This document shows positions 491-14,222 of a DNA stretch of 64,000 bases, one piece after another (position 1 is the first letter of the stretch; each line of letters opens with the position of its first letter). Position numbers and translations under genes: made by a program. The notes below the pieces were generated by a model. The model did no database searches. It saw only the letters and a program-made list of their open reading frames with translations, and was not told where the DNA came from. The DNA comes from an uncultured delta proteobacterium (GTDB lineage: Bacteria > Desulfobacterota > Desulfomonilia > Desulfomonilales > Desulfomonilaceae), in NCBI GenBank assembly GCA_963789265.1, contig CAWBKB010000001.1, positions 928,001 through 992,000 on the forward strand, written 5' to 3'.

Positions 491-2767
491 CTACAATTCC
501 ACACCGAGGCGTTCCCAAACCGATTCTCCCTCTTCGATACCCACCGGTTTCAGGTGCCGATAGGTGGTGAACAGAAAATAGAGCAGCGGCAAGACTCCGA
601 AGATGATGACAATCAGGTCGGGCACAACACGGAAGGTGGTCAGCGTCATAACAATGGGTCTTTCAAAAAACGAAGCATCCTTGGCCACCCACAACGCCTG
701 AGAGAAGCACGTCCACACCTGGAGCAATCCCACCGGAAACAGGGTCGCTGCCATCATGAGTAACAAGCCGCCGTTGAACCCCCAAAATGACATCTTGAGC
801 ATGCGATTGTTCCAATGGTCCTTGTCCACCATGCCTCTCCAGGAAAACAACAGCAAGGCTATGGAGAGCATTCCGTACACTCCGAACAAGGCTCCGTGTG
901 CATGGTTGACTGTTAGATATGTCCCGTGCTCGTAGTAGTTGGCAAGTGGAAGATTGTTCAAGAAGCCAAAGACACCGGCGCCGAGGAAGTTCCAGAACGA
1001 TGAGGCTCCCAGGAAGAACAGAGGCCATTTGTACGGGAATGCCTCTCCTTTTCGACGGACCTCCCTATATTCGATCAGGCCGCGAACCACAAGTCCCAAT
1101 AGCGGGATCGGCTCAAGGGATGAAAATACCGATCCTATTGCAAGCCAGAGGGAAGGTTGGCCGAACCAGAAGAAGTGGTGAGCCGTACCGAGAATCCCAC
1201 CCAAAAAGACGAGAGCAATTGTGAAGTAGGCCACTGTGAGAGCTGCTTTTGCGGTGGCCAATCCCATTGTCACCAGCAGCAAGGCGATTACCGCTATGCC
1301 AAAAAACTCAAAGATGCTTTCAACCCATATATGAACCACAAACCATCGCCAGTAATCGGCGAGGGTTAAATGAGTTCCTCTCCCGTACAGAAGGCCAAAT
1401 CCAAAAAATGCGACAACTAGGACAGCACTGATAACGTACAAAACGATGAGTGCATTGAAATCGTCCTTGTGCCCCAGTTTGAAGTGATGCCTGATAGGGC
1501 GGTACACGATGAAAAGCCATGCAATGAGGCCGATGTAAAGAATGATCTGCCACGCCCGGCCAAGCTCCAGATATTCCCAGCCCTGATGGCCGAACCAGAA
1601 CCACCAATCGCCAAGAAGATGCTTGATTCCCGCAACTTCTCCCAGGAGACTCCCACCAGCTACGATGAGGATCGCGGCAAAAAGTAGCTGAACCAAGGTC
1701 CCTTGACGTCTGGGCTCTATCCCGCCAATCACAGGAGCAATATATATTGCTGAGGCAATCCAGGTGGTTAGTATCCAGAATATAGCCAACTGGAGGTGCC
1801 ACGTCTTGGCCCAATTGTATGGCATCCACTTTGCCACTATCTGGAGGTAAAAGCTCGCCGGATGAACGGTGTAGTGCGCCAGAAGTCCGCCCATGCAGGT
1901 CTGTGCAAGGAATAGAAGGACAACCACGAGAAAGTATTTCGCGGCTTTGTGCTGGCTGGAAGTCAAAGGCATGTCAATCAGCCGGTCGCCCAAGGGAACC
2001 CCTTTGGCCGCTCCGTACCACAGGCCGTAGTAGTGGACAAAGAAAACGAAGATCCCTGCCACTATGAGGAAGGATAGGAGCCCACCAAGCGTCCACAGGT
2101 AGGTTGAAGTGGTAGGGACGTTGCCCACGCTTCGGTCTGCCGGCCAATTGTTGGTGTACGTGTATTTCGTACCAGGTCGATTTGTTGAGGCAACCCACGC
2201 TGTCCAGAAGAAGAAGCGCCCTATTTCAAGCCTCTGCTTCTGTGAGTCGATTGTGTGGGGCAAGAATCCGTACCGTTTTTCCCCGTTCTTGAACGTATCT
2301 TCCCAGTGGCGCTCAACAGCTTTGAGCCCTGAGACCTGAGCATCGGTAAGGGTCAGTGTGTCGCTCGCAGGGTCATAGCGATTCTGTCTGATTTCGTGGA
2401 TGGCTTTGACGCCAACCAGGTCCTTTTGGAGGTCGTCCAACTCGGAATAGGGTTTTCCATAATCTTTTTGGGCAATGGAACCCCTTACTTCTTCGCTGAT
2501 TAAATGCAGGCTGGCAGCCGAGAATTCAGGTCCTCTCTGGGTGCCGTGTCCCCACACCATACCCTGATCCATAAGGCCGTAGCTCTGAAAGACATCTTGC
2601 CCCTCAAGGATGTCCTGTTTGGTGAATAATACCGCGCCGTCCGGTCCCACAACTTTTCCGGGATAGGGGGCGAGTTGGTGAATCGTAGTCAGCCCGCCAA
2701 TGATAAGAATGGTCAGAGTAATAACAAAGCACAAAATAGCGGCCCATTTGAGCCCTCGTAGTGACAT
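491..2767 (-). CDS. norB: Quinol-dependent nitric oxide reductase (qNor, single subunit)
   Basis: Multi-TM heme-copper oxidase superfamily motifs: TWHLQLAIFW, WRWFVVHIWVESIFEFF, GTAHHFFW, HAHGALFGVYG, N-terminal GMVWGHG. Start moved to ATG 2767, 6 nt after GGAGGAGG. Confidence 0.9.
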   Translation of the reverse strand: MSLRGLKWAAILCFVITLTILIIGGLTTIHQLAPYPGKVVGPDGAVLFTKQDILEGQDVFQSYGLMDQGMVWGHGTQRGPEFSAASLHLISEEVRGSIAQKDYGKPYSELDDLQKDLVGVKAIHEIRQNRYDPASDTLTLTDAQVSGLKAVERHWEDTFKNGEKRYGFLPHTIDSQKQRLEIGRFFFWTAWVASTNRPGTKYTYTNNWPADRSVGNVPTTSTYLWTLGGLLSFLIVAGIFVFFVHYYGLWYGAAKGVPLGDRLIDMPLTSSQHKAAKYFLVVVLLFLAQTCMGGLLAHYTVHPASFYLQIVAKWMPYNWAKTWHLQLAIFWILTTWIASAIYIAPVIGGIEPRRQGTLVQLLFAAILIVAGGSLLGEVAGIKHLLGDWWFWFGHQGWEYLELGRAWQIILYIGLIAWLFIVYRPIRHHFKLGHKDDFNALIVLYVISAVLVVAFFGFGLLYGRGTHLTLADYWRWFVVHIWVESIFEFFGIAVIALLLVTMGLATAKAALTVAYFTIALVFLGGILGTAHHFFWFGQPSLWLAIGSVFSSLEPIPLLGLVVRGLIEYREVRRKGEAFPYKWPLFFLGASSFWNFLGAGVFGFLNNLPLANYYEHGTYLTVNHAHGALFGVYGMLSIALLLFSWRGMVDKDHWNNRMLKMSFWGFNGGLLLMMAATLFPVGLLQVWTCFSQALWVAKDASFFERPIVMTLTTFRVVPDLIVIIFGVLPLLYFLFTTYRHLKPVGIEEGESVWERLGVEL

Positions 2768-2893
2768 CGGCATCCTCCTCCATACTGACTCTAATCCCCT
2801 GGCGGGAGCGACCGCCGGATACGTCCCGCGGACCGGAAATGCGACCGAAGCCACTGTCATGCAAGCGGTCGAGCCTTCACTTTTGACAGGTGA

Positions 2894-4576
2894 TCATTTT
2901 TCCTCGTTCTTAGCGGCCTTGACCTGGTCCATCCTCCGTAGTTCTTTGCGGAGGATCTTTCCTACCGCGCTCTTTGGCAGCTCTTTAACGAATTCCACGT
3001 ATTTGGGAACCTTGTACTTGACCAGATTTTCCTTGCAATAGTCGATAATTTCAATTGGTGTGGCCGTTTCCCCTTCCTTAAGAACAATGTATGCCTTGAT
3101 GCGCTCACCGGAATAAGCGTCGGGAACGCCTATGGCACAGGCTTCCAGGACCTTTGGATGAGAGAACAGCACCTCGTCCACATCCCTCGGATAGATATTG
3201 AAGCCTCCCGAGATTATCATATCCTTCTTGCGGTCCACGATACTGAAGTAGCCTTCTTCATCCACGATCGCGATGTCTCCCGTCAGGAGCCAGCCGTCTC
3301 TCAGGGTTATTGCCGTCTCGTCCGGGCGATTTATATACCCTTTCATGATCTGCGGACCCTTTAGACAAAGTTCCCCAGCTTCGCCCGAGGTCGTGATTTC
3401 TTTATTGTAATCGTCCACATCCACCAACTTGGCCTCAGTGTTGGATACCGGTAGGCCTATCGTGCCGGGCTTCGTCTTTGCGCCGTACGGATTGATGTGT
3501 GTCACGGGCGAAGTTTCGGTAAGGCCGTAACCTTCGCAAATCTGCGCACCGGTGAGCCTCTCGAAGCTCCTTAAAGTTTCCAGCGGAAGCGGAGCCCCGC
3601 CGGAAAAACACCCTTTGAGAGACTTTAGACTGTACTTCTTGAGCTGGGGGAAGTTGATCATTCCGTTGTACAGCGTAGGAACTGCCGGCATGAACGTGGC
3701 CTTGTACCTGTCTATGGCATCCAAAATCGTCTTGGGTTCCGGCTTGGGGATCAAGACGTCCGCGTATGCTTTATAGATCCCAATGTTCATGGCGGAGGTC
3801 ATTCCGAAGGAATGGAAGAACGGCAGGCAGCCGACCACGATCTCGCCCCCCGGCTCGAAATCTGGAAACCACGCCGCAGATTGCTGAACATTACATGACA
3901 GATTTGCATGGGTCAGCTCGACGCCTTTTGACACACCGGTCGTACCGCCTGTATATAGCAGCACGGCAGTGCTCTCCCATTTCAGCTTCGGGGGATCGGT
4001 AACAGGCGGATACTTCTTGATGAGGTCCATGAATTCGAGCACATCGGTAGCCGCGGGGGTCTTGAGGTGCATACTTTTTTTGACAAATGGAAAGAGTTGC
4101 TTGAGAGGAAAGGGCAGGAAATCTCGGATGTGGCAAGAAATTATCTTCTTTATCCCAGTCTTCTGCCTCAAATTGATCATCCGCGGGAGCAGGACATCCA
4201 GGCAAACCAGAAACGTAGACCCAGAATCATTATATTGGTGCTCCAGCTCCCGGTCCGTGTAAAGAGGGTTGTTCATCGCGACGACCGCGCCCGCGCGAAA
4301 CGTTCCGTAAATCGCGACCACCGTCTGGACGAGATTAGGGAGGAGTAGGGCCACCTTATCGCCCGGACTCACTCCCAGAGCTATCAGTCCGGACGCAAAT
4401 CTGGACACCATGTCGTCCAGTTGTCGGAAAGTCACGGTAGTCCCCTCGAACAGAAGCCCCGGGTTGTCGGGAAAACTCTGGGCTGTTCGCGCGAGTGCTT
4501 CCGACAGCGTTATTTTCTCGAAGTCGATCTCGGCAGGAACGTCATGGTGGTAGTATTTCAGCCACGTCTTTTCCAT
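2894..4576 (-). CDS. fadD: Long-chain fatty acid--CoA ligase
   Basis: AMP-binding motifs YTGGTTGVSKG, EGYGLTETSP, TGD, DRKKDMII, LPKSAVGKILR. Confidence 0.88.
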   Translation of the reverse strand: MEKTWLKYYHHDVPAEIDFEKITLSEALARTAQSFPDNPGLLFEGTTVTFRQLDDMVSRFASGLIALGVSPGDKVALLLPNLVQTVVAIYGTFRAGAVVAMNNPLYTDRELEHQYNDSGSTFLVCLDVLLPRMINLRQKTGIKKIISCHIRDFLPFPLKQLFPFVKKSMHLKTPAATDVLEFMDLIKKYPPVTDPPKLKWESTAVLLYTGGTTGVSKGVELTHANLSCNVQQSAAWFPDFEPGGEIVVGCLPFFHSFGMTSAMNIGIYKAYADVLIPKPEPKTILDAIDRYKATFMPAVPTLYNGMINFPQLKKYSLKSLKGCFSGGAPLPLETLRSFERLTGAQICEGYGLTETSPVTHINPYGAKTKPGTIGLPVSNTEAKLVDVDDYNKEITTSGEAGELCLKGPQIMKGYINRPDETAITLRDGWLLTGDIAIVDEEGYFSIVDRKKDMIISGGFNIYPRDVDEVLFSHPKVLEACAIGVPDAYSGERIKAYIVLKEGETATPIEIIDYCKENLVKYKVPKYVEFVKELPKSAVGKILRKELRRMDQVKAAKNEEK

Positions 4577-5478: not shown

Positions 5479-6114
5479 CTAGGCCGGCTTTACGAAATTT
5501 ATCGTAAAGGCCCACCAGTTGCCGTACTGGTGTTTCAGATGAAAACCGGCGGCTTCAGCTAAAGCGCGGACAGTATCGCGTGCCTGATAGTGAGGGTCAG
5601 GGAATATCTCTGTGATGGACAGCACTCCCCCCGGTTTCAGCAAGTCGTAAATTTCACGAAGCGCGGCTTCGCGGTCGGGAATCTCGCCCAGGACTGTCAC
5701 CAACAAAGCCAGGTCGAAGGCGTTGGATTCCACATTCCCCTGACCGATGCCACCCAAGACGGTACGGATGTTGGTTAGGCCGGATGCCGCGATTCGAGTT
5801 CCCAGTTTTCGCAGCATCGCCTCCTGAACGTCGAGGGCTACGACTTCACCTTCCGGCCCCAATTGACGGGCCACGGGAATAGTCAGGCGGCCGGGCCCAC
5901 ATCCTGCATCGAGCACACGCATGCCCGGCTTCAGATCAAGCAATTCCAGTTGTGGGTGACTGGTCCTCACGCCTCCGGTGATCGGGTTTTCCAGCAGCCA
6001 AGCCAACCATACAGGGCAAGGCAAAAAACGGCGCCTTGACGCGTAACGCCACCACAGGCTGATTCCCACCAGACCGATGATTACGACTGCAACGATGAGC
6101 GCTGCGATTTTCAT
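5479..6114 (-). CDS. Class I SAM-dependent methyltransferase with N-terminal TM anchor
   Basis: VLDAGCGPG motif I, LKPGG post-II motif, hydrophobic N-terminus. Confidence 0.85.
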   Translation of the reverse strand: MKIAALIVAVVIIGLVGISLWWRYASRRRFLPCPVWLAWLLENPITGGVRTSHPQLELLDLKPGMRVLDAGCGPGRLTIPVARQLGPEGEVVALDVQEAMLRKLGTRIAASGLTNIRTVLGGIGQGNVESNAFDLALLVTVLGEIPDREAALREIYDLLKPGGVLSITEIFPDPHYQARDTVRALAEAAGFHLKHQYGNWWAFTINFVKPA

Positions 6115-6155: not shown

Positions 6156-8288
6156 TCAAAGAATCTTCATCTTTTCGTTAATCAATTTAAGCATGGCAAC
6201 GTTATCGGTATGGCCTGTCTGCTTCGCCACTATTTTGCCGCGGATGGGCCGTCCCAACAGATAAAAATCTCCTATGATATCTAATATCTTATGGCGAACG
6301 AACTCATCAGGAAATCTGAGGGGTGGGTTCACGACTTTCTCCTCGTCCAGAAGCACCACGTTGGAAAGCCTTCCCCCACTGGCAAGCCCCATCTCATCCA
6401 TCATGCGCATATCCTTCACAAATCCGAAGGTCCGAGCGGGCGCGATCTCACGTTTGAAGTCCTCCGAGCCGACGCAGCGGTAAACCATGCTCATCTTGCC
6501 TATAGGTTTAGGATAATCGAGGATATATTCAATCTCGAAGAAATCTGAAGGCTCAACCCTAATGCTCTTGGTGTTACCCGGCGGCCGAGGGAGTTCCATG
6601 GGCTCGCCGATGACGATCTCCTCAACTGTCTCGTCCTGGGTGATGATTTCCGCGCTCTCCACTAGATTACAGAACTCGAGGGCCGAACCATCCATGATCG
6701 GTACTTCACCGGATATCTTCACGAGCACGTTTGTCAGGCCGTAGATATGAAAAACGGCCATAAGGTGCTCAATGGTGCGGGCGGCTAAGCCGTCACGACG
6801 CAGACACGTCGATAGTTCAGTTGACTCCACATTGCTCAGAACAGCCGGCAAGGTCCCGCCCGAGTTGATATGTCCGAACAAAATACCGCTAAAAGGAGGC
6901 AGCGGAGAAATGGTCAGACCGGTCTTAACTCCGGAGTGGAGCCCTTGGCCGTACTTAACCACCCGGCCTCTGAGCGTCTTTTGTTGATGGAACGGGCTGA
7001 GCCCGGGAGTCAACTTCGAGCGTGGCCGGCGGGTCGTTCCGATCAAAGGAGCGCGGTCCGGAATCGACTGTTCCGCGGACACTTGGTCAGAGGTACCTAA
7101 TGAAGTGGGAGAATGCGTGGAATCCCGAGAAGTTTCCCGTTCCCCGGGAATGAGCAGGTCGCCGGCGGTGATTCGAGGCCCGGGCGCAGTCATTACCACG
7201 TGCTCAATGAGGATCTTCAGTTCCTTCACATTCCCCGGCCACGAATACGAAAGAAGGCGCTCCATTGCGTCGTCATCCGTGCCGTTGATGTTTCTATCGA
7301 ACTCTTCAATCGCTTCCTTGAGAAAGTGATTTACAAACAAGGGGATGTCTTCGGCGCGTTCGCTAAGTGTGGGGAGTCTGATGATCCGCTGGGCAAGTCT
7401 GTCCGCGAGATCAGGCGGGAAATCGTCATCCCTAACAAGAGTTTCAGCATCTATCGTGGAGGTCGAAATTATCCGAAATCGAGAAGCTCCTCGGGAGCCG
7501 GCCCAGGTGTCCGGCCCGAAGTGATCCCGAAGAATTTTGTCCAGAGGCTCCCTCAGACGCTTGTCGAGGCGGTCTATTCTCACGAGGAGCAGCGTTCCGC
7601 GCGCCGCTTGCAGCATCTTTCCGGTTCTCTGATTGTTAGAGCCGTTGCTTTTGCCAATAAGTATATCCCGGATATTGTCGGGGCCAAGATCGGGGCAGCG
7701 AACCTTGACGAGGCTGTGCCGGTCCTTGCCTTCCAAATAATGAATGGTCCTTGCCAAGAACTCCTTGCCCGTACCCTTGTCACCCGTTAGCCATACGGCC
7801 CCGCCTTCCGTAGCAGCGTTTTCAAGGGCTCGCCTGAGCGCCGCGGCCTTGGAAGAGGCACCTATCAGTTGACTGGGACTCGACCCATTCCCCTGTCCCG
7901 AGCGTTTCGCAGACGAGCGGCTCGAAATAGCCGTTTGGACAAGATGGAGCACGTCTTCCAGGTTGAGAGGCTTTTCCAGATAGTCGGTGGCACCAAGCTT
8001 GATTGCTTTTACAGCAGTTTCGATGGTGCCATGGCCGCTCATCATGATGACCGAGCACTTTGGGTCGATCCTCTTGATGGCCTTCAAGGTCTGCATACCG
8101 TCGATTCCCGGGATCCATATATCGAGGAAGACCACATCAGGGGAGTCGCTTTGAACGACGTGCAGTGCTTCCTGGCCGTCGCGAACCTTGATCAGCTCAT
8201 GCCCCTCATCGGCAAGGATCGCTCCTAGCGAATCAAGGATCTCCTGCTGGTCGTCAACTATGAGTACTCTTCCCTTATTCATAATCAT
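6156..8288 (-). CDS. lpxC: Fusion: response-regulator receiver + degenerate sigma54-type AAA+ domain + UDP-3-O-acyl-GlcNAc deacetylase
   Basis: Receiver (IVDD, LDIW, SGHG, EKP); Walker A GDKGTGKE and WPGNVKEL; C-terminal LpxC motifs GQGLHSG, TIEHLMA, PIMDGSA, APARTFGF, RHKILDIIGD, GH. One uninterrupted ORF. Confidence 0.88.
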   Translation of the reverse strand: MIMNKGRVLIVDDQQEILDSLGAILADEGHELIKVRDGQEALHVVQSDSPDVVFLDIWIPGIDGMQTLKAIKRIDPKCSVIMMSGHGTIETAVKAIKLGATDYLEKPLNLEDVLHLVQTAISSRSSAKRSGQGNGSSPSQLIGASSKAAALRRALENAATEGGAVWLTGDKGTGKEFLARTIHYLEGKDRHSLVKVRCPDLGPDNIRDILIGKSNGSNNQRTGKMLQAARGTLLLVRIDRLDKRLREPLDKILRDHFGPDTWAGSRGASRFRIISTSTIDAETLVRDDDFPPDLADRLAQRIIRLPTLSERAEDIPLFVNHFLKEAIEEFDRNINGTDDDAMERLLSYSWPGNVKELKILIEHVVMTAPGPRITAGDLLIPGERETSRDSTHSPTSLGTSDQVSAEQSIPDRAPLIGTTRRPRSKLTPGLSPFHQQKTLRGRVVKYGQGLHSGVKTGLTISPLPPFSGILFGHINSGGTLPAVLSNVESTELSTCLRRDGLAARTIEHLMAVFHIYGLTNVLVKISGEVPIMDGSALEFCNLVESAEIITQDETVEEIVIGEPMELPRPPGNTKSIRVEPSDFFEIEYILDYPKPIGKMSMVYRCVGSEDFKREIAPARTFGFVKDMRMMDEMGLASGGRLSNVVLLDEEKVVNPPLRFPDEFVRHKILDIIGDFYLLGRPIRGKIVAKQTGHTDNVAMLKLINEKMKIL

Positions 8289-8369
8289 CGAATATTAGCT
8301 TTACGGAGTCCTTCAGGCAACCCCAAAATAGAGATGGACCGGAAATAAACTCTTGTTCATCTGTTATCT

Positions 8370-9807: not shown

Positions 9808-10055
9808 GGCTGACTTGAGGTTGCGAGATTCTTTGATTTTTGAAAATCAGGAATAATTGCAGTTCGACTTCAAGCAAGTGACAAAGAGCCCTTGGTAGGG
9901 TGGTAATGCCCGCCTATAGTGCGTCATGCTCGCGTACGCGGGCATCCAGCACCGGCCTCCGTGCCGGTGAAGACTTCTCTCGAGAGTCGCTCTATAGCTG
10001 TTTTCAAAAGTTCTCACAATTAAGTTTGGAATCCAACAAATGTGGCTCGTGTCCT

Positions 10056-10127
<72 letters not shown>

Positions 10128-10252
10128 CAAGCCAATTCGTGATTACTTTCGAGAACTGTCAAGAGCAAAAAAAACTTGTGGTTCCTTGGGACTACCCATA
10201 TCATTCCAAATCATCTCCTTCTTAAGGCTCTTCTAACGAAGGAATTGTCCCT

Positions 10253-13200
10253 ATGCCCAACTTGGATCTGAAAACTACCAACAAAGCCATCAAGGACTAC
10301 TACTCCGGCCTTGCTGAATTCGACAAGCACGGCGTCAAACATGAGATGGCTGTGCGGAGTGCGTTCCAGAGATTATTGGAGCACTGCAGCAGAAAAGTCG
10401 GATGGACGTTCGTGGGAGAATACAAATACCATCGTAAAGACCGTCGTCCAGTAAGCATCGACGGCGGCATGGTAGATGCTTTCACCGTTCCGCAAGGCTT
10501 CTGGGAAGCCAAAGACTCGCAAGACGACCTTGGCAAGGAGGTACAAAATAAATTCTCAATCGGGTATCCGCAAGACAACATCATTTTTCAAGAACCCAGG
10601 AGGGCCATTCTGTGGCAGGGCGGCCGCGAGATTTGCGATCTGGACATTACAAGAGCCGACGCGCTGGTCTACGTAGTTCAAGAGCTGTTCACATACAGGG
10701 ACCAGACGCAAAGTGATTGGGAACAAGCTGTTGCGGATTTCAAACCTCATATTCCAGACGTCGCAAGAAAGGTCGTTGAACTCATCGAAATAGAGCGCAA
10801 GGAAAACCGGGGTTTCATCAAGGCATTCGATACCTTTGCGACCGTTTGCAGGTCCTCTGTGAACCCCAATCTCTCGGATTCCGCGGTTGAAGAAATGCTG
10901 GTCCAACACTTGCTCACAGAGCGGATCTTCCGCAAGGTATTTCACAACTCTGATTTTACCGGCAGGAACATCATTGCCCATGAGATCGAACGAGTGATTC
11001 AATCGCTCACTTCGAGAAAATTCAGCAGGGAGGAGTTTCTCAAGCCGCTGGATCGCTTCTACGTTGCATTGGAGCGCAGAGCTGAATCCTTGGATGATTA
11101 TGCCCAGCAGCAGACGTTCTTAAACACGGTTTATGAAAAATTCTTTCAAGGGTTCGCGATCAAGCAGGCGGATACCCACGGGATCGTTTACACACCGCAG
11201 CCGATTGTTAATTTTATGGTCCGGTCCGTGGAAGAGATCCTGAAGCAGGAGTTCGGCAAGAGCCTCAGCGATGAGGGCGTCCACATAATTGATCCTTTTG
11301 TGGGAACCGGCAACTTTATTACACGCATCATGCGGGAGATCAAAAAGACTGCACTGCCTCACAAGTATGCAAATGAACTGCACTGCAACGAGGTCATGCT
11401 GCTCCCCTATTACATAGCGTCCATGAACATCGAACATGAGTATTATGAGCGAACCGGTGAATACAAACCGTTTGAGGGCATTTGCCTCGTGGACACGTTC
11501 GAGCTTGCCGAAGACAAGCAGTTGTCGCTCATGTTCACGCAGGAAAACACTGAGCGGGTGGAGAAGCTTAGAAAGACCAAGCTGTTCGTGATCATAGGAA
11601 ATCCGCCGTACAACGCCTGGCAGGTGAATGAAAACGACAACAACAAGAATCGCAAATACAAGACGATGGATAAACGTGTGGCTGACACATACTCCAGGGA
11701 TGGCACAGCTACCAACAAGAGCGCTCTATCAGATCCGTATGTAAAGGCCCTTCGGTGGGCCTCGGATAAGATTCTGGAAAATGGTGAGGGTGTGGTCGCT
11801 TTTGTTTCCAATGACAGTTTTGTGGACACTCTGGCGTTTGATGGGATGCGGAGACATTTAGCGGCCGACTTCGATCGCATCTATGTACTTGACCTTGGCG
11901 GCAACGTCCGAAAGAACCCGAAGATTTCGGGGACAACCCACAATGTGTTCGGCATACAAGTCGGGGTCAGCATCAATCTTCTGGTCAAACTACGGGACCC
12001 CAACAGCAGAGGACGTATCTTCTATTTCCGCATGGACGAAAATTGGAGAAAGGACGCTAAATTTGCCCTTCTTGATCAGAGCGAGACATGTTCAGGTGTG
12101 AAGTGGCAGGAGATAGTCCCGAAGGGCAAGTACACGTGGCTGACCGAAGGATTGAGAAATGACTTTGAAACCTTCTTGCCTCTTGGAACAAAGAAAGCGA
12201 AAGCAGGTACAGGAGAGGCCATATTCGGCCTTTTCAGTTCCGGATTGCAGACCAATCGCGACACGTGGGCCTACAACTTTGATACTAAAGCACTTGAAGC
12301 CAATATGCGGATAACTATCACAGCCTACAACGAACAGCTACTTAAGTGGTCGAATCACCATCCAAAAGGCGATATAGACGACTTCGTCGTGAGCGATGAC
12401 ACGAGAATTAGTTGGAGTAGCAGCCTCAAGAGTTACTTGTTGCAGCTCATTGCCGTTGAATATGATAGTTCCAAGATTCGAGATGGAATCTATAGGCCGT
12501 TTGTGCGCTCAAGCGTCTATTTCGATAGGCATTTCAATCATCGTCGCTACCAACTACCTCGGATTTTCCCAAAACCCGCCGCTGAATCCGAGAACTGTAC
12601 TATATGCCTCACCGACAGGGGATCTGAAAAACCGTTCGTGGCTCTGATGACCAACTATCTGACAGACCTTCATCTTGTTGGAGCTGGTTGCAGCACGCAG
12701 TGCTTCCCATTTTACACGTACGACCAAGATGGCTCCAACCGCCGCGAAAATGTCACCGACTGGGCTGTTGAGCAGTTTTCTGCGGCTCTGGGTTCTGGAG
12801 TGAAAAGGATGAAGATCTTCCACTACATCTACGGCCTTCTCCATTCGCCGGAATACCGAGAAAAATACCAGTCCAACCTCAAAAGAGATCTTCCACGGAT
12901 ACCATTGCCCAAGACCATCGAACAATTCCACGCGTTCGCATCCGCGGGCGAACGCTTGGCGGATCTCCATGTCAATTATGAATCCCAGAAGGAATACCCT
13001 CTTGAGAATATAGAGAATCCTGACAAGCCTCTTAACTGGCGGGTCGAGAAAATGAAGCTCACCAAGGACAAGACGGCCATTGTCTACAATAACTTCCTGA
13101 CGCTTGCCGGCATACCGTCCGAAGCCTTCGAGTACAAATTGGGCAATCGCTCAGCCTTAGAATGGATAATTGACAGATATCAGGTTCGCCGGGACAAGAG

Positions 13201-13324
13201 GAGCGGCATCGTCAACGACCCTAACCGAGCCGACGACCAGCAGTACATCGTGAAGCTGATTGGGAAGATTATTACGGTGAGTCTGGAAACGATGAAGGTC
13301 ATTAATTCTTTGCCAAGCATGTAG
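10253..13324 (+). CDS. Single-chain restriction-modification enzyme (Type IIG/IIL-like; N6 MTase with Type ISP-like C-terminal specificity domain, no helicase)
   Basis: N-terminal D...EAK nuclease-like motif (IDGG...FWEAKD); GIVYTPQPIV, DPFVGTGNF (motif I), IIGNPPY (motif IV); C-terminal YKLGNRSALEWIIDRY. Confidence 0.85.
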   Translation: MPNLDLKTTNKAIKDYYSGLAEFDKHGVKHEMAVRSAFQRLLEHCSRKVGWTFVGEYKYHRKDRRPVSIDGGMVDAFTVPQGFWEAKDSQDDLGKEVQNKFSIGYPQDNIIFQEPRRAILWQGGREICDLDITRADALVYVVQELFTYRDQTQSDWEQAVADFKPHIPDVARKVVELIEIERKENRGFIKAFDTFATVCRSSVNPNLSDSAVEEMLVQHLLTERIFRKVFHNSDFTGRNIIAHEIERVIQSLTSRKFSREEFLKPLDRFYVALERRAESLDDYAQQQTFLNTVYEKFFQGFAIKQADTHGIVYTPQPIVNFMVRSVEEILKQEFGKSLSDEGVHIIDPFVGTGNFITRIMREIKKTALPHKYANELHCNEVMLLPYYIASMNIEHEYYERTGEYKPFEGICLVDTFELAEDKQLSLMFTQENTERVEKLRKTKLFVIIGNPPYNAWQVNENDNNKNRKYKTMDKRVADTYSRDGTATNKSALSDPYVKALRWASDKILENGEGVVAFVSNDSFVDTLAFDGMRRHLAADFDRIYVLDLGGNVRKNPKISGTTHNVFGIQVGVSINLLVKLRDPNSRGRIFYFRMDENWRKDAKFALLDQSETCSGVKWQEIVPKGKYTWLTEGLRNDFETFLPLGTKKAKAGTGEAIFGLFSSGLQTNRDTWAYNFDTKALEANMRITITAYNEQLLKWSNHHPKGDIDDFVVSDDTRISWSSSLKSYLLQLIAVEYDSSKIRDGIYRPFVRSSVYFDRHFNHRRYQLPRIFPKPAAESENCTICLTDRGSEKPFVALMTNYLTDLHLVGAGCSTQCFPFYTYDQDGSNRRENVTDWAVEQFSAALGSGVKRMKIFHYIYGLLHSPEYREKYQSNLKRDLPRIPLPKTIEQFHAFASAGERLADLHVNYESQKEYPLENIENPDKPLNWRVEKMKLTKDKTAIVYNNFLTLAGIPSEAFEYKLGNRSALEWIIDRYQVRRDKRSGIVNDPNRADDQQYIVKLIGKIITVSLETMKVINSLPSM

Positions 13325-13394: not shown

Positions 13395-14222
13395 ATGATT
13401 CCAAACTCAGTGTGGCCCGAACTTCTGGGAATTCCTGAAAGCGAGTGGGATGGCGCAGATGTTTGGGAGAAGATTTCCAAGGCTCTGGACATGCTGAGCA
13501 ATCCCGAGCCTATCATCAATCGGTGCTTCGACAAGATGCAGGAGTACCTTCACGCGGAGCTAGTTCAGTATGGATTCTATGTGCCACTGTCAGTTTTCCC
13601 GTCGGGCTCAATACCTGATCTTGCCAATTTATTTGCCAGTGGAGACCCGACGCTCGTCAAGGGATTCCTAGCTGAGCGACTACGAGAGGAATTGGGAAAA
13701 GAGCATATTTTCAGTTTAAGAAAGAGGTGGGACAGGAATCGATTCTTTAGTAAGAGAAAACACATACTGGATGCTGGGCTCGATGCACATCTGAAAGGTG
13801 ATTTTGTGTCGTCGATTCCCGTCTTGCTTCCTCATTTGGAAGGGATTGTGTTTGAATTCTTGTACGAATCACAGGTGTTCAAGAAGAAGTCACTTAAACG
13901 GAACGGCGTAGATGCTCTTAGTATGATGAAAAAGGTGTTAGTTCAAGAAGACTTGGTCTTTACGAGGTGGGACAAGAAGCAATTCCAAGAATTTGTGACG
14001 GACAAAGGCATATATGATAACAAGGAAGACAAGGATATCTTCTTGAACAGGGGCGCTATACTTCACGGTGAATGCTTGAATTATAATAATGAAGAATGGT
14101 CGGCTCAACTCATCTATTTCTTAGATTTTTTGAATGTGCTCACATCGCACAAGTGGGACCGAGTAACCCTACCCGATCGGAGTGAGACAATCCAACTGAG
14201 AAAAACGGTAGACAGAGAATAA
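13395..14222 (+). CDS. Hypothetical AT-rich protein with possible HEPN-like RxxxxH motif
   Basis: 275-aa ORF; SSIPVLLPHLEG and NRGAILHG; immediately downstream of the R-M gene. Confidence 0.6.
   Translation: MIPNSVWPELLGIPESEWDGADVWEKISKALDMLSNPEPIINRCFDKMQEYLHAELVQYGFYVPLSVFPSGSIPDLANLFASGDPTLVKGFLAERLREELGKEHIFSLRKRWDRNRFFSKRKHILDAGLDAHLKGDFVSSIPVLLPHLEGIVFEFLYESQVFKKKSLKRNGVDALSMMKKVLVQEDLVFTRWDKKQFQEFVTDKGIYDNKEDKDIFLNRGAILHGECLNYNNEEWSAQLIYFLDFLNVLTSHKWDRVTLPDRSETIQLRKTVDRE

Follow-up and report, generated by a model that had tools for sequence, protein, structure and literature searches.

A receiver domain fused to LpxC in the Desulfomonilaceae: a possible response regulator with a lipid A enzyme as its output

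Introduction

LpxC catalyses the committed step in the synthesis of outer-membrane lipid A; lipopolysaccharide production is controlled at this point, and the enzyme has long been pursued as a target for antibiotics. We describe here an open reading frame (ORF) in which LpxC is joined, in one polypeptide, to the receiver (REC) and AAA+ domains of an NtrX-like response regulator; it lies on the minus strand, at 6156..8288, of a 64,000-nucleotide stretch of DNA from an uncultured member of the Desulfomonilaceae (contig CAWBKB010000001.1, positions 928,001 to 992,000; the whole of this stretch is called the window below). According to a 2025 review of lipid A regulation, the known controls of LpxC are proteolysis and transcription (PMC12444477). 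In Escherichia coli, control by FtsH/LapB is proteolytic and operates through a C-terminal degron and an adaptor, whereas the element that would exert control in the fusion is a receiver in the same polypeptide.

The closest described systems are the NtrY/NtrX pairs of Brucella abortus (structures 5m7n and 4d6x), Rhodobacter sphaeroides and Caulobacter crescentus, which provide both the best solved match of the fusion and its best NCBIfam regulator model. NtrYX has been linked to the envelope and to the level of the lpxC transcript (PMC7240162; PMC12444477); for the R. sphaeroides ntrYX deletion, an 8.8-fold rise in lpxC transcript is reported, with no NtrX site at lpxC (PMC7240162). The output of NtrX is DNA binding, and the effect of alphaproteobacterial NtrYX on lpxC is transcriptional (and indirect in R. 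sphaeroides), whereas the predicted output of the fusion is an enzyme in the same chain. NtrX and the fusion share the receiver signatures LDIW and GHG, and the candidate kinase of the fusion has the HAMP, PAS, HisKA and HATPase_c architecture of NtrY, with a borderline NtrY_N match. When the two are aligned, the GAFTGA loop is missing from both Brucella NtrX and the fusion; Brucella NtrX keeps the Walker B sequence LDE, in contrast to the fusion, which has neither this acidic pair nor a helix-turn-helix (HTH).

A second comparison is offered by DVU2931 (the kinase) and DVU2934, which belong to the same broad bacterial group and form a two-component sigma54 system dedicated to lpxC. For the sigma54 response regulator DVU2934 of Desulfovibrio vulgaris, lpxC is reported as the single mapped target, and in Syntrophobacter fumaroxidans lpxC adjoins the orthologous operon (PMC3333781). 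DVU2934 is described as retaining GAFTGA (PMC4641369) and acts on a promoter, whereas the fusion lacks every part needed for transcription; the two are likened here by description only. In layout, the fusion recalls CheB, REC-GGDEF and REC-HD-GYP proteins, where a receiver, a flexible linker and a catalytic domain are likewise combined, and it differs from the CheB-type regulators in having LpxC as output, with a vestigial AAA+ module between receiver and enzyme. A natural fusion of LpxC is also on record in LpxC-FabZ, whose NCBIfam model (NF009667) matches the LpxC part of our protein; there an enzyme related to the pathway occupies the C-terminus, whereas here a signalling module occupies the N-terminus. 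Our literature search, which was conducted mostly at the level of titles and abstracts, found no description of a receiver-LpxC fusion or of LpxC as the output of a response regulator. In the 2025 review, the words fusion, fused and receiver are absent, and NtrYX figures as a transcriptional influence only (PMC12444477).

We suggest that the fusion is a response regulator with LpxC as its output, derived from an NtrX-like activator of lpxC that was captured by its target, and that it would place the enzyme under direct phospho-control. We favour this reading with moderate confidence, and the evidence for it, together with the alternatives, is set out below.

Domain architecture and sequence motifs

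A first-pass annotation of the window, prepared from the sequence without database searches, had drawn attention to a 710-aa ORF at 6156..8288 in which LpxC follows an NtrX-like receiver and a disabled AAA+ domain. Length and position stand, while the strand had to be corrected to minus, and the domain search that the annotation proposed recovers Response_reg, Sigma54_activat and LpxC, with AAA_lid_14 besides. From the N-terminus, and with all coordinates on the minus strand, the protein consists of a REC domain (aa 8-117, 7938..8267; Pfam Response_reg PF00072, 4e-30, 104.7 bits against a Pfam cut-off of 30.2), an unconserved, Ser/Gly-rich REC-AAA linker (aa 118-140, 7869..7937), a Sigma54-type AAA+ core (aa 141-300, 7389..7868; Sigma54_activat PF00158, 3.5e-17), an AAA+ lid (aa 310-378, 7155..7361; AAA_lid_14 PF25601, 1.9e-20), an unconserved, low-complexity AAA-LpxC linker (aa 381-434, 6987..7148) and a complete LpxC domain (aa 436-703, 6180..6983; PF03331, 1.4e-78, 264.5 bits against a cut-off of 27). 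The LpxC match spans positions 1-266 of the 268 in the Pfam model, which agrees with the full LpxC that had been described as following a low-complexity linker.

The LpxC part also scores above the cut-off of the NCBIfam lpxC model TIGR00325 (214.4 bits; cut-off 187.25). The best NCBIfam regulator model is NtrX (NF051870), at 248 bits and under its cut-off of 600; positions 4-375 of the 452 in this model are matched by the fusion, so that the DNA-binding end is missing, and HTH_8 gave no Pfam match at E<=0.01 in the 710-aa protein. The closest solved structure to the N-terminal 380 residues is that of Brucella NtrX (5m7n, E 8.8e-55), followed by Aquifex NtrC4 and by NtrC1, and the C-terminal part aligns with the LpxC structure of Pseudomonas aeruginosa and with other LpxC structures at about E 1e-46.

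Motifs were read in an alignment of 40 homologues of 60-88% identity (A1) and against the solved NtrX, NtrC4 and NtrC1. Both comparisons uphold the receiver as first described, with its acidic pair, phospho-Asp, Ser and Lys-Pro: D12, D13, D56 (in LDIW), S84 and K106-P107 are invariant in A1 (40/40). The account of the AAA+ module, which was said to keep Walker A and to have lost GAFTGA, the Walker B Asp-Glu pair and the HTH, proves correct on every count. In the Walker A motif, GDKGTGKE, residues G169, G172, G174, K175 and E176 are invariant in 40/40. The GAFTGA loop is deleted relative to NtrC4 and NtrC1, in a region that is variable, and is absent from 40/40 family members and from 16/16 fused representatives of the wider group described below; the Walker B pair is replaced by V/I and R/G in the family, the window protein reading LLLVRID. 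Further losses affect both arginine-finger positions (291 is P/S, and 297 is hydrophobic in 39/40), the sensor II Arg, which is Lys355 in 40/40, and sensor I. Because the arginine fingers and the sensor II Arg have gone in addition to the losses already recorded, the ATPase is, to judge by its motifs, even more thoroughly disabled than the first-pass annotation had it.

The catalytic domain presents the opposite state, since its EH, HKxxD and GH residues are intact, as had been noted, when it is aligned to P. aeruginosa LpxC and to the family. E507, H508, H666, K667, D670, D674, H693 and T620 are invariant among the 40 family members, and 97% or more of 83 LpxC domains, fused and unfused, have the same residues. 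E507, H508, H666, D670 and H693, as positioned by the alignment, are the residues that we take to be zinc ligands or the catalytic Glu/His.

Conservation of the domains and linkers

Mean pairwise identity in A1 is highest of all domains in the receiver (84.5%, with 50% invariant columns), followed by LpxC (75.1%), the lid (67%) and the AAA core (43%). That the receiver should be the most constrained part of the protein speaks against its being a dead passenger. It bears directly on the possibility that the REC-AAA part is an evolutionary relic and LpxC constitutive, the N-terminus serving at most as a tag for solubility or localisation. Such a relic would agree with the loss of the ATPase and sigma54 motifs and of the HTH, with the absence of the receiver phospho-site from a distant fused protein, P0137, and with what seems to be a plain sigma70-like promoter in front of the window gene. 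It is hard to reconcile, however, with a receiver whose mean identity lies above that of LpxC and whose five phospho-site residues are kept in 40/40, with the retention of the receiver by lineages that have shed the AAA+ module, or with kinases that, in lineages other than this one, are coupled to the fusion in translation, and we regard it as improbable.

The two linkers behave quite differently from the receiver. The REC-AAA linker has a mean pairwise identity of 22.5% and 0/20 invariant columns (aa 121-140), and the AAA-LpxC linker, which is 40-61 aa long in relatives, has one of 12%. The linkers are pertinent to the main rival of our reading, in which architecture and kinase are the same and the state of the receiver would control the stability of LpxC, and not its catalysis, by uncovering or masking a signal for breakdown by FtsH, Lon or Clp. 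Long disordered linkers are good entry sites for proteases, the fused LpxC stops right past its catalytic core with no long C-terminal tail, and proteolysis is reported to control LpxC in E. coli and has been suggested to do so in some alphaproteobacteria (PMC12444477). Nothing in the protein, however, points to a degron or an adaptor, and the linkers, where a degron would most likely reside, show no sequence conservation. A search for LapB with the zinc-ribbon model PF18073, the one query used, gave RadA alone. Control through stability is accordingly an explanation that we think unlikely but keep in view.

Authenticity of the fusion and copy number of lpxC

The same four domains are found in at least 120 protein clusters from independent assemblies, at 59-88% identity, and the cultured, non-pathogenic Desulfomonile tiedjei carries an orthologue (P0047, 66% identity) on a 6.5-Mb contig. 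The survey of related genomes that had been proposed shows the layout recurring across the family: of 24 other family genomes, 16 have it in one full-length frame and 2 have it cut by contig ends, 3 have no fused match, all of these being incomplete (73-86% complete), and in 3 assemblies of the same genus (G002, G004 and G006) it is split into two or three frames. These split genes would speak for an artefact, that is, for a long ORF produced by a frameshift in, or a misjoin of, an NtrX-like regulator gene and lpxC. The three breaks sit, however, at homopolymer runs, in low-contig assemblies, and one of them falls within the conserved receiver, from which we infer that they are indel errors and not natural splits. 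A stop or misassembly in the linker, which the first-pass annotation had named among the findings that would refute its proposal, was not seen: a short-read contig from a public soil run, possibly the source sample, covers 6951-7197, and hence the whole AAA-LpxC linker, without a difference. With the linker spanned unchanged, the layout common to at least 120 clusters and the full-length frame in 16/24 family genomes, the artefact explanation is close to refuted, and we give it almost no weight.

The fusion is also the only lpxC of its genome, a point on which the annotation had asked for a check. Across the family, LpxC was found in 39 of the 41 Desulfomonilaceae genomes searched and is the sole match in 37 of these 39, with 36 of the 37 single matches lying in open frames of 692-764 aa. 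In one genome (G019, contamination 6%) there is a second, partial match at a contig edge, and in another (G442) the match consists of two adjacent pieces. LpxB and LpxK are both present in the genome of the window. As the sole lpxC of a genome that has LpxB and LpxK, the fusion must, on this gene content, supply the working LpxC enzyme of the cell.

Receiver-LpxC fusions in other lineages

Among 1.84 billion representative proteins, a search brought up many clusters (at 50% identity) in which a receiver and LpxC are joined, from sources whose names include Nitrospinota and Entotheonellia; the database names of these proteins are simply LpxC or NtrX. A Pfam scan was made of 43 of the best 150 clusters, and N-terminally truncated and incomplete entries were left out of the type counts. 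The types among the 43 were REC-AAA-lid-HTH_8-LpxC (5), REC-AAA-lid-LpxC, as in the window (9), REC-HTH_8-LpxC (2) and REC-LpxC of 412-483 aa (20). The HTH_8 domain lies between AAA and LpxC, at the position of the linker, in P0125, P0126, P0130, P0132 and P0133. The 16 aligned AAA-containing fusions, namely the window protein and 15 representatives, have all lost the Walker B Glu together with GAFTGA.

Gene order was examined at 80 loci from species genomes, picked by their similarity to the fused family, so that the unfused loci were not drawn at random but are those most closely related to it. The fusion is present at 33 of them, with the AAA module in 9 and without it in 24, and these fused loci come from Thermodesulfobacteriota, Nitrospinota, Acidobacteriota, Binatota, Nitrospirota and other groups. 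In a tree of the LpxC domain (a quick search, with no bootstrap), 34/34 fused rows fall on one side of a branch with an SH-aLRT value of 99 and the 49 unfused rows on the other; the latter include the LpxC of a sister family from the same class, and within the fused group forms with and without AAA are interleaved. Since the fused rows group together and the two forms interleave, the tree fits a single origin, after which the AAA module was apparently lost repeatedly and the fusion spread horizontally to some extent. A match to the LpxC part at E<=1e-70 was obtained in 101 of 401 sampled genomes of the phylum, in all but one of them within frames of 399-1423 aa; in this sample it is found in 7/7 genomes of the fusion's own family and 0/6 of the sister family.

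The forms without AAA help to assign a role to this module. It is conceivable that the decisive input is the binding of nucleotide by the pseudo-ATPase, as a sensor of ATP/ADP or of energy state, with the receiver secondary. The Walker A motif GxxGxGKE, invariant in 40/40 while the hydrolysis motifs are lost, and the well-conserved lid are what one would expect of such a sensor. Against it, 24/33 fused loci and many of the representatives have dispensed with AAA and kept REC-LpxC, and the AAA core is the least conserved of the folded parts; we find it highly doubtful. Because so many relatives keep REC-LpxC without it, the AAA+ module, on the evidence of these architectures, cannot be the core of the switch.

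A candidate partner kinase

The neighbours of the fusion are a SAM methyltransferase, an acyl-CoA ligase and Hsp20, and the statement of the first-pass annotation that no cognate kinase is adjacent is correct; but the NtrY-like kinase that it advised looking for does exist, as a single orphan elsewhere on the same contig. This kinase, of 733 aa (G000 contig C1:2193137-2195335), lies 1.26 Mb from the fusion and is the only one of NtrY type in the genome. Pfam identifies clear HAMP, PAS, HisKA and HATPase_c domains, and the protein has a full-length identity of 43% to the kinase of the sister family, in which NtrY_N scores 34.6 bits. Its orthologue is single-copy in 21/24 family genomes and in 16/16 sister-family genomes. 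The genes next to the kinase encode a Zincin_1 protein and Sua5 but no regulator, and the same orphan context recurs in 5/5 other family genera, in one of which a receiver-like stretch is found about 3 kb off on the other strand.

At 12 of the 33 fused loci elsewhere, a full-length NtrY-type kinase lies immediately upstream on the same strand; the 5/5 of these kinases that were checked with Pfam have NtrY_N, HAMP, PAS, HisKA and HATPase, and the gaps range from -8 to +47 nt. The phospho-His helix (AWREVARRIAHE.KNPLTPIQL) is nearly invariant in 30 orthologues drawn from all three gene arrangements, as fits one conserved type of partner. On these grounds we think it probable, with a little more assurance than attaches to the reading as a whole, that the orphan NtrY-type kinase is the partner of the fusion.

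We also note that the kinase belongs to a conserved block, Pth / Zincin_1 / kinase / Sua5, found in six family genera (locus L011). The Zincin_1 ORF overlaps the start of the kinase by 4 nt, and because of this overlap the two may be co-translated.

Possible origin from an NtrX-like activator

In the sister family, the regulator most like the fusion stands directly after the NtrY-type kinase in 14/16 genomes. At both of the sister-family loci that were opened (L008 and L009) the order is lpxC, kinase and a complete sigma54 regulator with its HTH, whose best NCBIfam model is NtrX (506 bits, under the cut-off of 600). The order lpxC-ntrY(-ntrX) is also present at 11 of 45 unfused loci of other groups. 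Both opened lpxC-ntrY-ntrX operons are followed by a radical SAM protein (Radical_SAM_N2) and then by a RadC-like JAB protein.

A tree of the REC and AAA domains sets the fused group apart with an SH-aLRT value of 100, and the sister-family NtrX falls outside the clade (99) made up of the genome's 14 canonical REC-AAA-HTH regulators. When receivers are compared on their own, that of the sister-family NtrX is 46-58% identical to the fused receivers, with the exception of P0137 (35%), and 30-41% identical to the other regulators of the genome; the signatures LDIW and S/T-GHG are common to the fused receivers and the sister-family NtrX. These receiver identities and signatures suggest that the fused receivers are tied to the NtrX type and not to the genome's other regulators.

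The view of the first-pass annotation that a transcription activator has been repurposed here gains support from the NtrX-like REC-AAA part, from relatives that still bear an HTH, from the lpxC-ntrY-ntrX operons, from the precedent of DVU2934 and from the constraint on the receiver. That the activator's capture, by the product of the very gene that it had formerly switched on, was a single and ancient event is a proposition for which we would put the chances at even.

A model for phospho-control of LpxC

The pathway that we propose would begin with an ancestral system of NtrY/NtrX type that activated lpxC transcription through sigma54, and whose regulator gene became fused in front of its target. 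After the fusion, the sigma54-contact loop, the ATPase motifs and the DNA-binding helix would have decayed. In the present-day cell, the orphan NtrY-type membrane kinase would phosphorylate D56, and the phosphorylated receiver would alter either the pairing of the REC-AAA scaffold or its docking on LpxC, so that the amount of active LpxC would be set post-translationally. In CheB, phosphorylation relieves inhibition. Because CheB works in this way and the ancestral regulator would have been an activator, we lean, as a guess, towards relief of inhibition upon phosphorylation, which would preserve the direction in which the ancestral activator worked. As for the AAA+ module, it would act as an oligomerisation or spacer scaffold and not as a motor, and it has probably kept nucleotide binding, given that its P-loop is invariant and its lid conserved.

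A number of observations weigh against this proposal. The linkers are flexible as well as unconserved, which argues against rigid allostery and would favour docking or a change of oligomeric state. In no family genome examined, this one included, is the kinase linked to the fusion. The NtrY_N match of the kinase is borderline, at 22.7 bits (23.2 when neighbours are counted) where the cut-off is 23.2, and many other kinases are encoded in the genome, with 129 candidates at first look. At 21/33 fused loci there is no NtrY in the fetched flank, some of these flanks being short. The fused group attaches basally in the REC-AAA tree, and for this reason orthology of the fusion to NtrX appears compatible with the tree and not proven by it. 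In a reciprocal search with the sister-family NtrX, the canonical regulators come out best, at 44-46%, and the fusion reaches 34%, a result that is not decisive because the degenerate AAA part lowers the score of the fusion. Lastly, P0137 has lost the phospho-site residues, so that phospho-regulation, as far as receiver residues tell, is not universal in the wider family. P0137 is itself a REC-AAA-LpxC protein in which the acidic pair and the phospho-Asp are missing (IVEND, LVSLW), that is, a pseudo-receiver.

Should direct phospho-control nonetheless be correct, phosphorylation would constitute a third principle of LpxC control, beside proteolysis and transcription, and it would operate in about a quarter of the sampled Thermodesulfobacteriota species and in several other phyla. 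A receiver-enzyme fusion of this kind would link a membrane sensor kinase directly to the synthesis of the outer membrane. It would also be a clear case of a target that has absorbed its regulator and of which intermediate stages survive in different lineages, and would show which parts of an AAA+ activator survive once its motor function is no longer needed. The Desulfomonilaceae would then preserve one such intermediate, with a fossil AAA+ module and an unlinked kinase. What the window adds is this stage, in which AAA is retained, from a family that has a cultured member, in combination with an unlinked kinase and with the fusion as the sole lpxC throughout the family.

Gene start, promoter and genomic context

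The true start of the protein is probably the third codon of the ORF, an ATG at 8282-8280 (M3), because M3 is invariant in 40/40 family members and the database copy of the protein has 708 aa. A hexamer pair, TTGCCT-N17-TAATAT, lies at 8292..8320 on the minus strand and ends 3 nt short of the first ATG; it matches 8/12 consensus positions, which is under the threshold of the consensus promoter scan. The pair occurs at the same place in relatives L003, L005 and L006, and as TTGATC-N17-TATTAT in L007; these four are 67-88% identical in protein, and the rest of the intergenic region has diverged between them. The pair may be a sigma70-type promoter that gives a nearly leaderless mRNA, in view of its closeness to the ATG and of the invariant M3.

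A sigma54 promoter was sought with the pattern TGGCAC-N5-TTGC (GG and GC obligatory, at most 3 mismatches) in 310-400 nt upstream of eight genes, namely the fusion here and in 4 relatives, lpxC at 2 sister-family loci and one ntrY. None of the eight stretches gave a match, in a scan too crude to count as evidence of absence. The consensus scan predicted no terminator 3' of the fusion gene, base composition shows nothing unusual, and Rfam gave, around the gene, only weak chance matches to miRNA models, at a hairpin at 10053-10129. This hairpin corresponds to a perfect inverted repeat of about 31 bp (10056-10126; -79 kcal/mol, z -9.9) between the Hsp20 gene and a restriction-modification gene.

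Downstream of the fusion, an AMP-binding acyl-CoA ligase (2894-4576, minus strand) is also found in L003, L004 and L005, which represent two or three genera, while the SAM methyltransferase between ligase and fusion (5479-6114) was not found at these three loci. The surroundings of the fusion may be a lipid-metabolism neighbourhood. Further along, near the start of the window, is a quinol-type nitric oxide reductase of 789 aa (491-2860, minus strand), with a NorB cytochrome c-like domain and COX1. On the other side, beyond the inverted repeat, an ORF of 275 aa (13395-14222) without a Pfam match comes next after the gene of a 1023-aa protein (10253-13324, plus strand). The latter protein, in which no nuclease or motor domain was detected, has Type ISP coupler, N6 methylase and Type ISP C-terminal specificity domains, and appears to be a shortened Type ISP restriction-modification enzyme.

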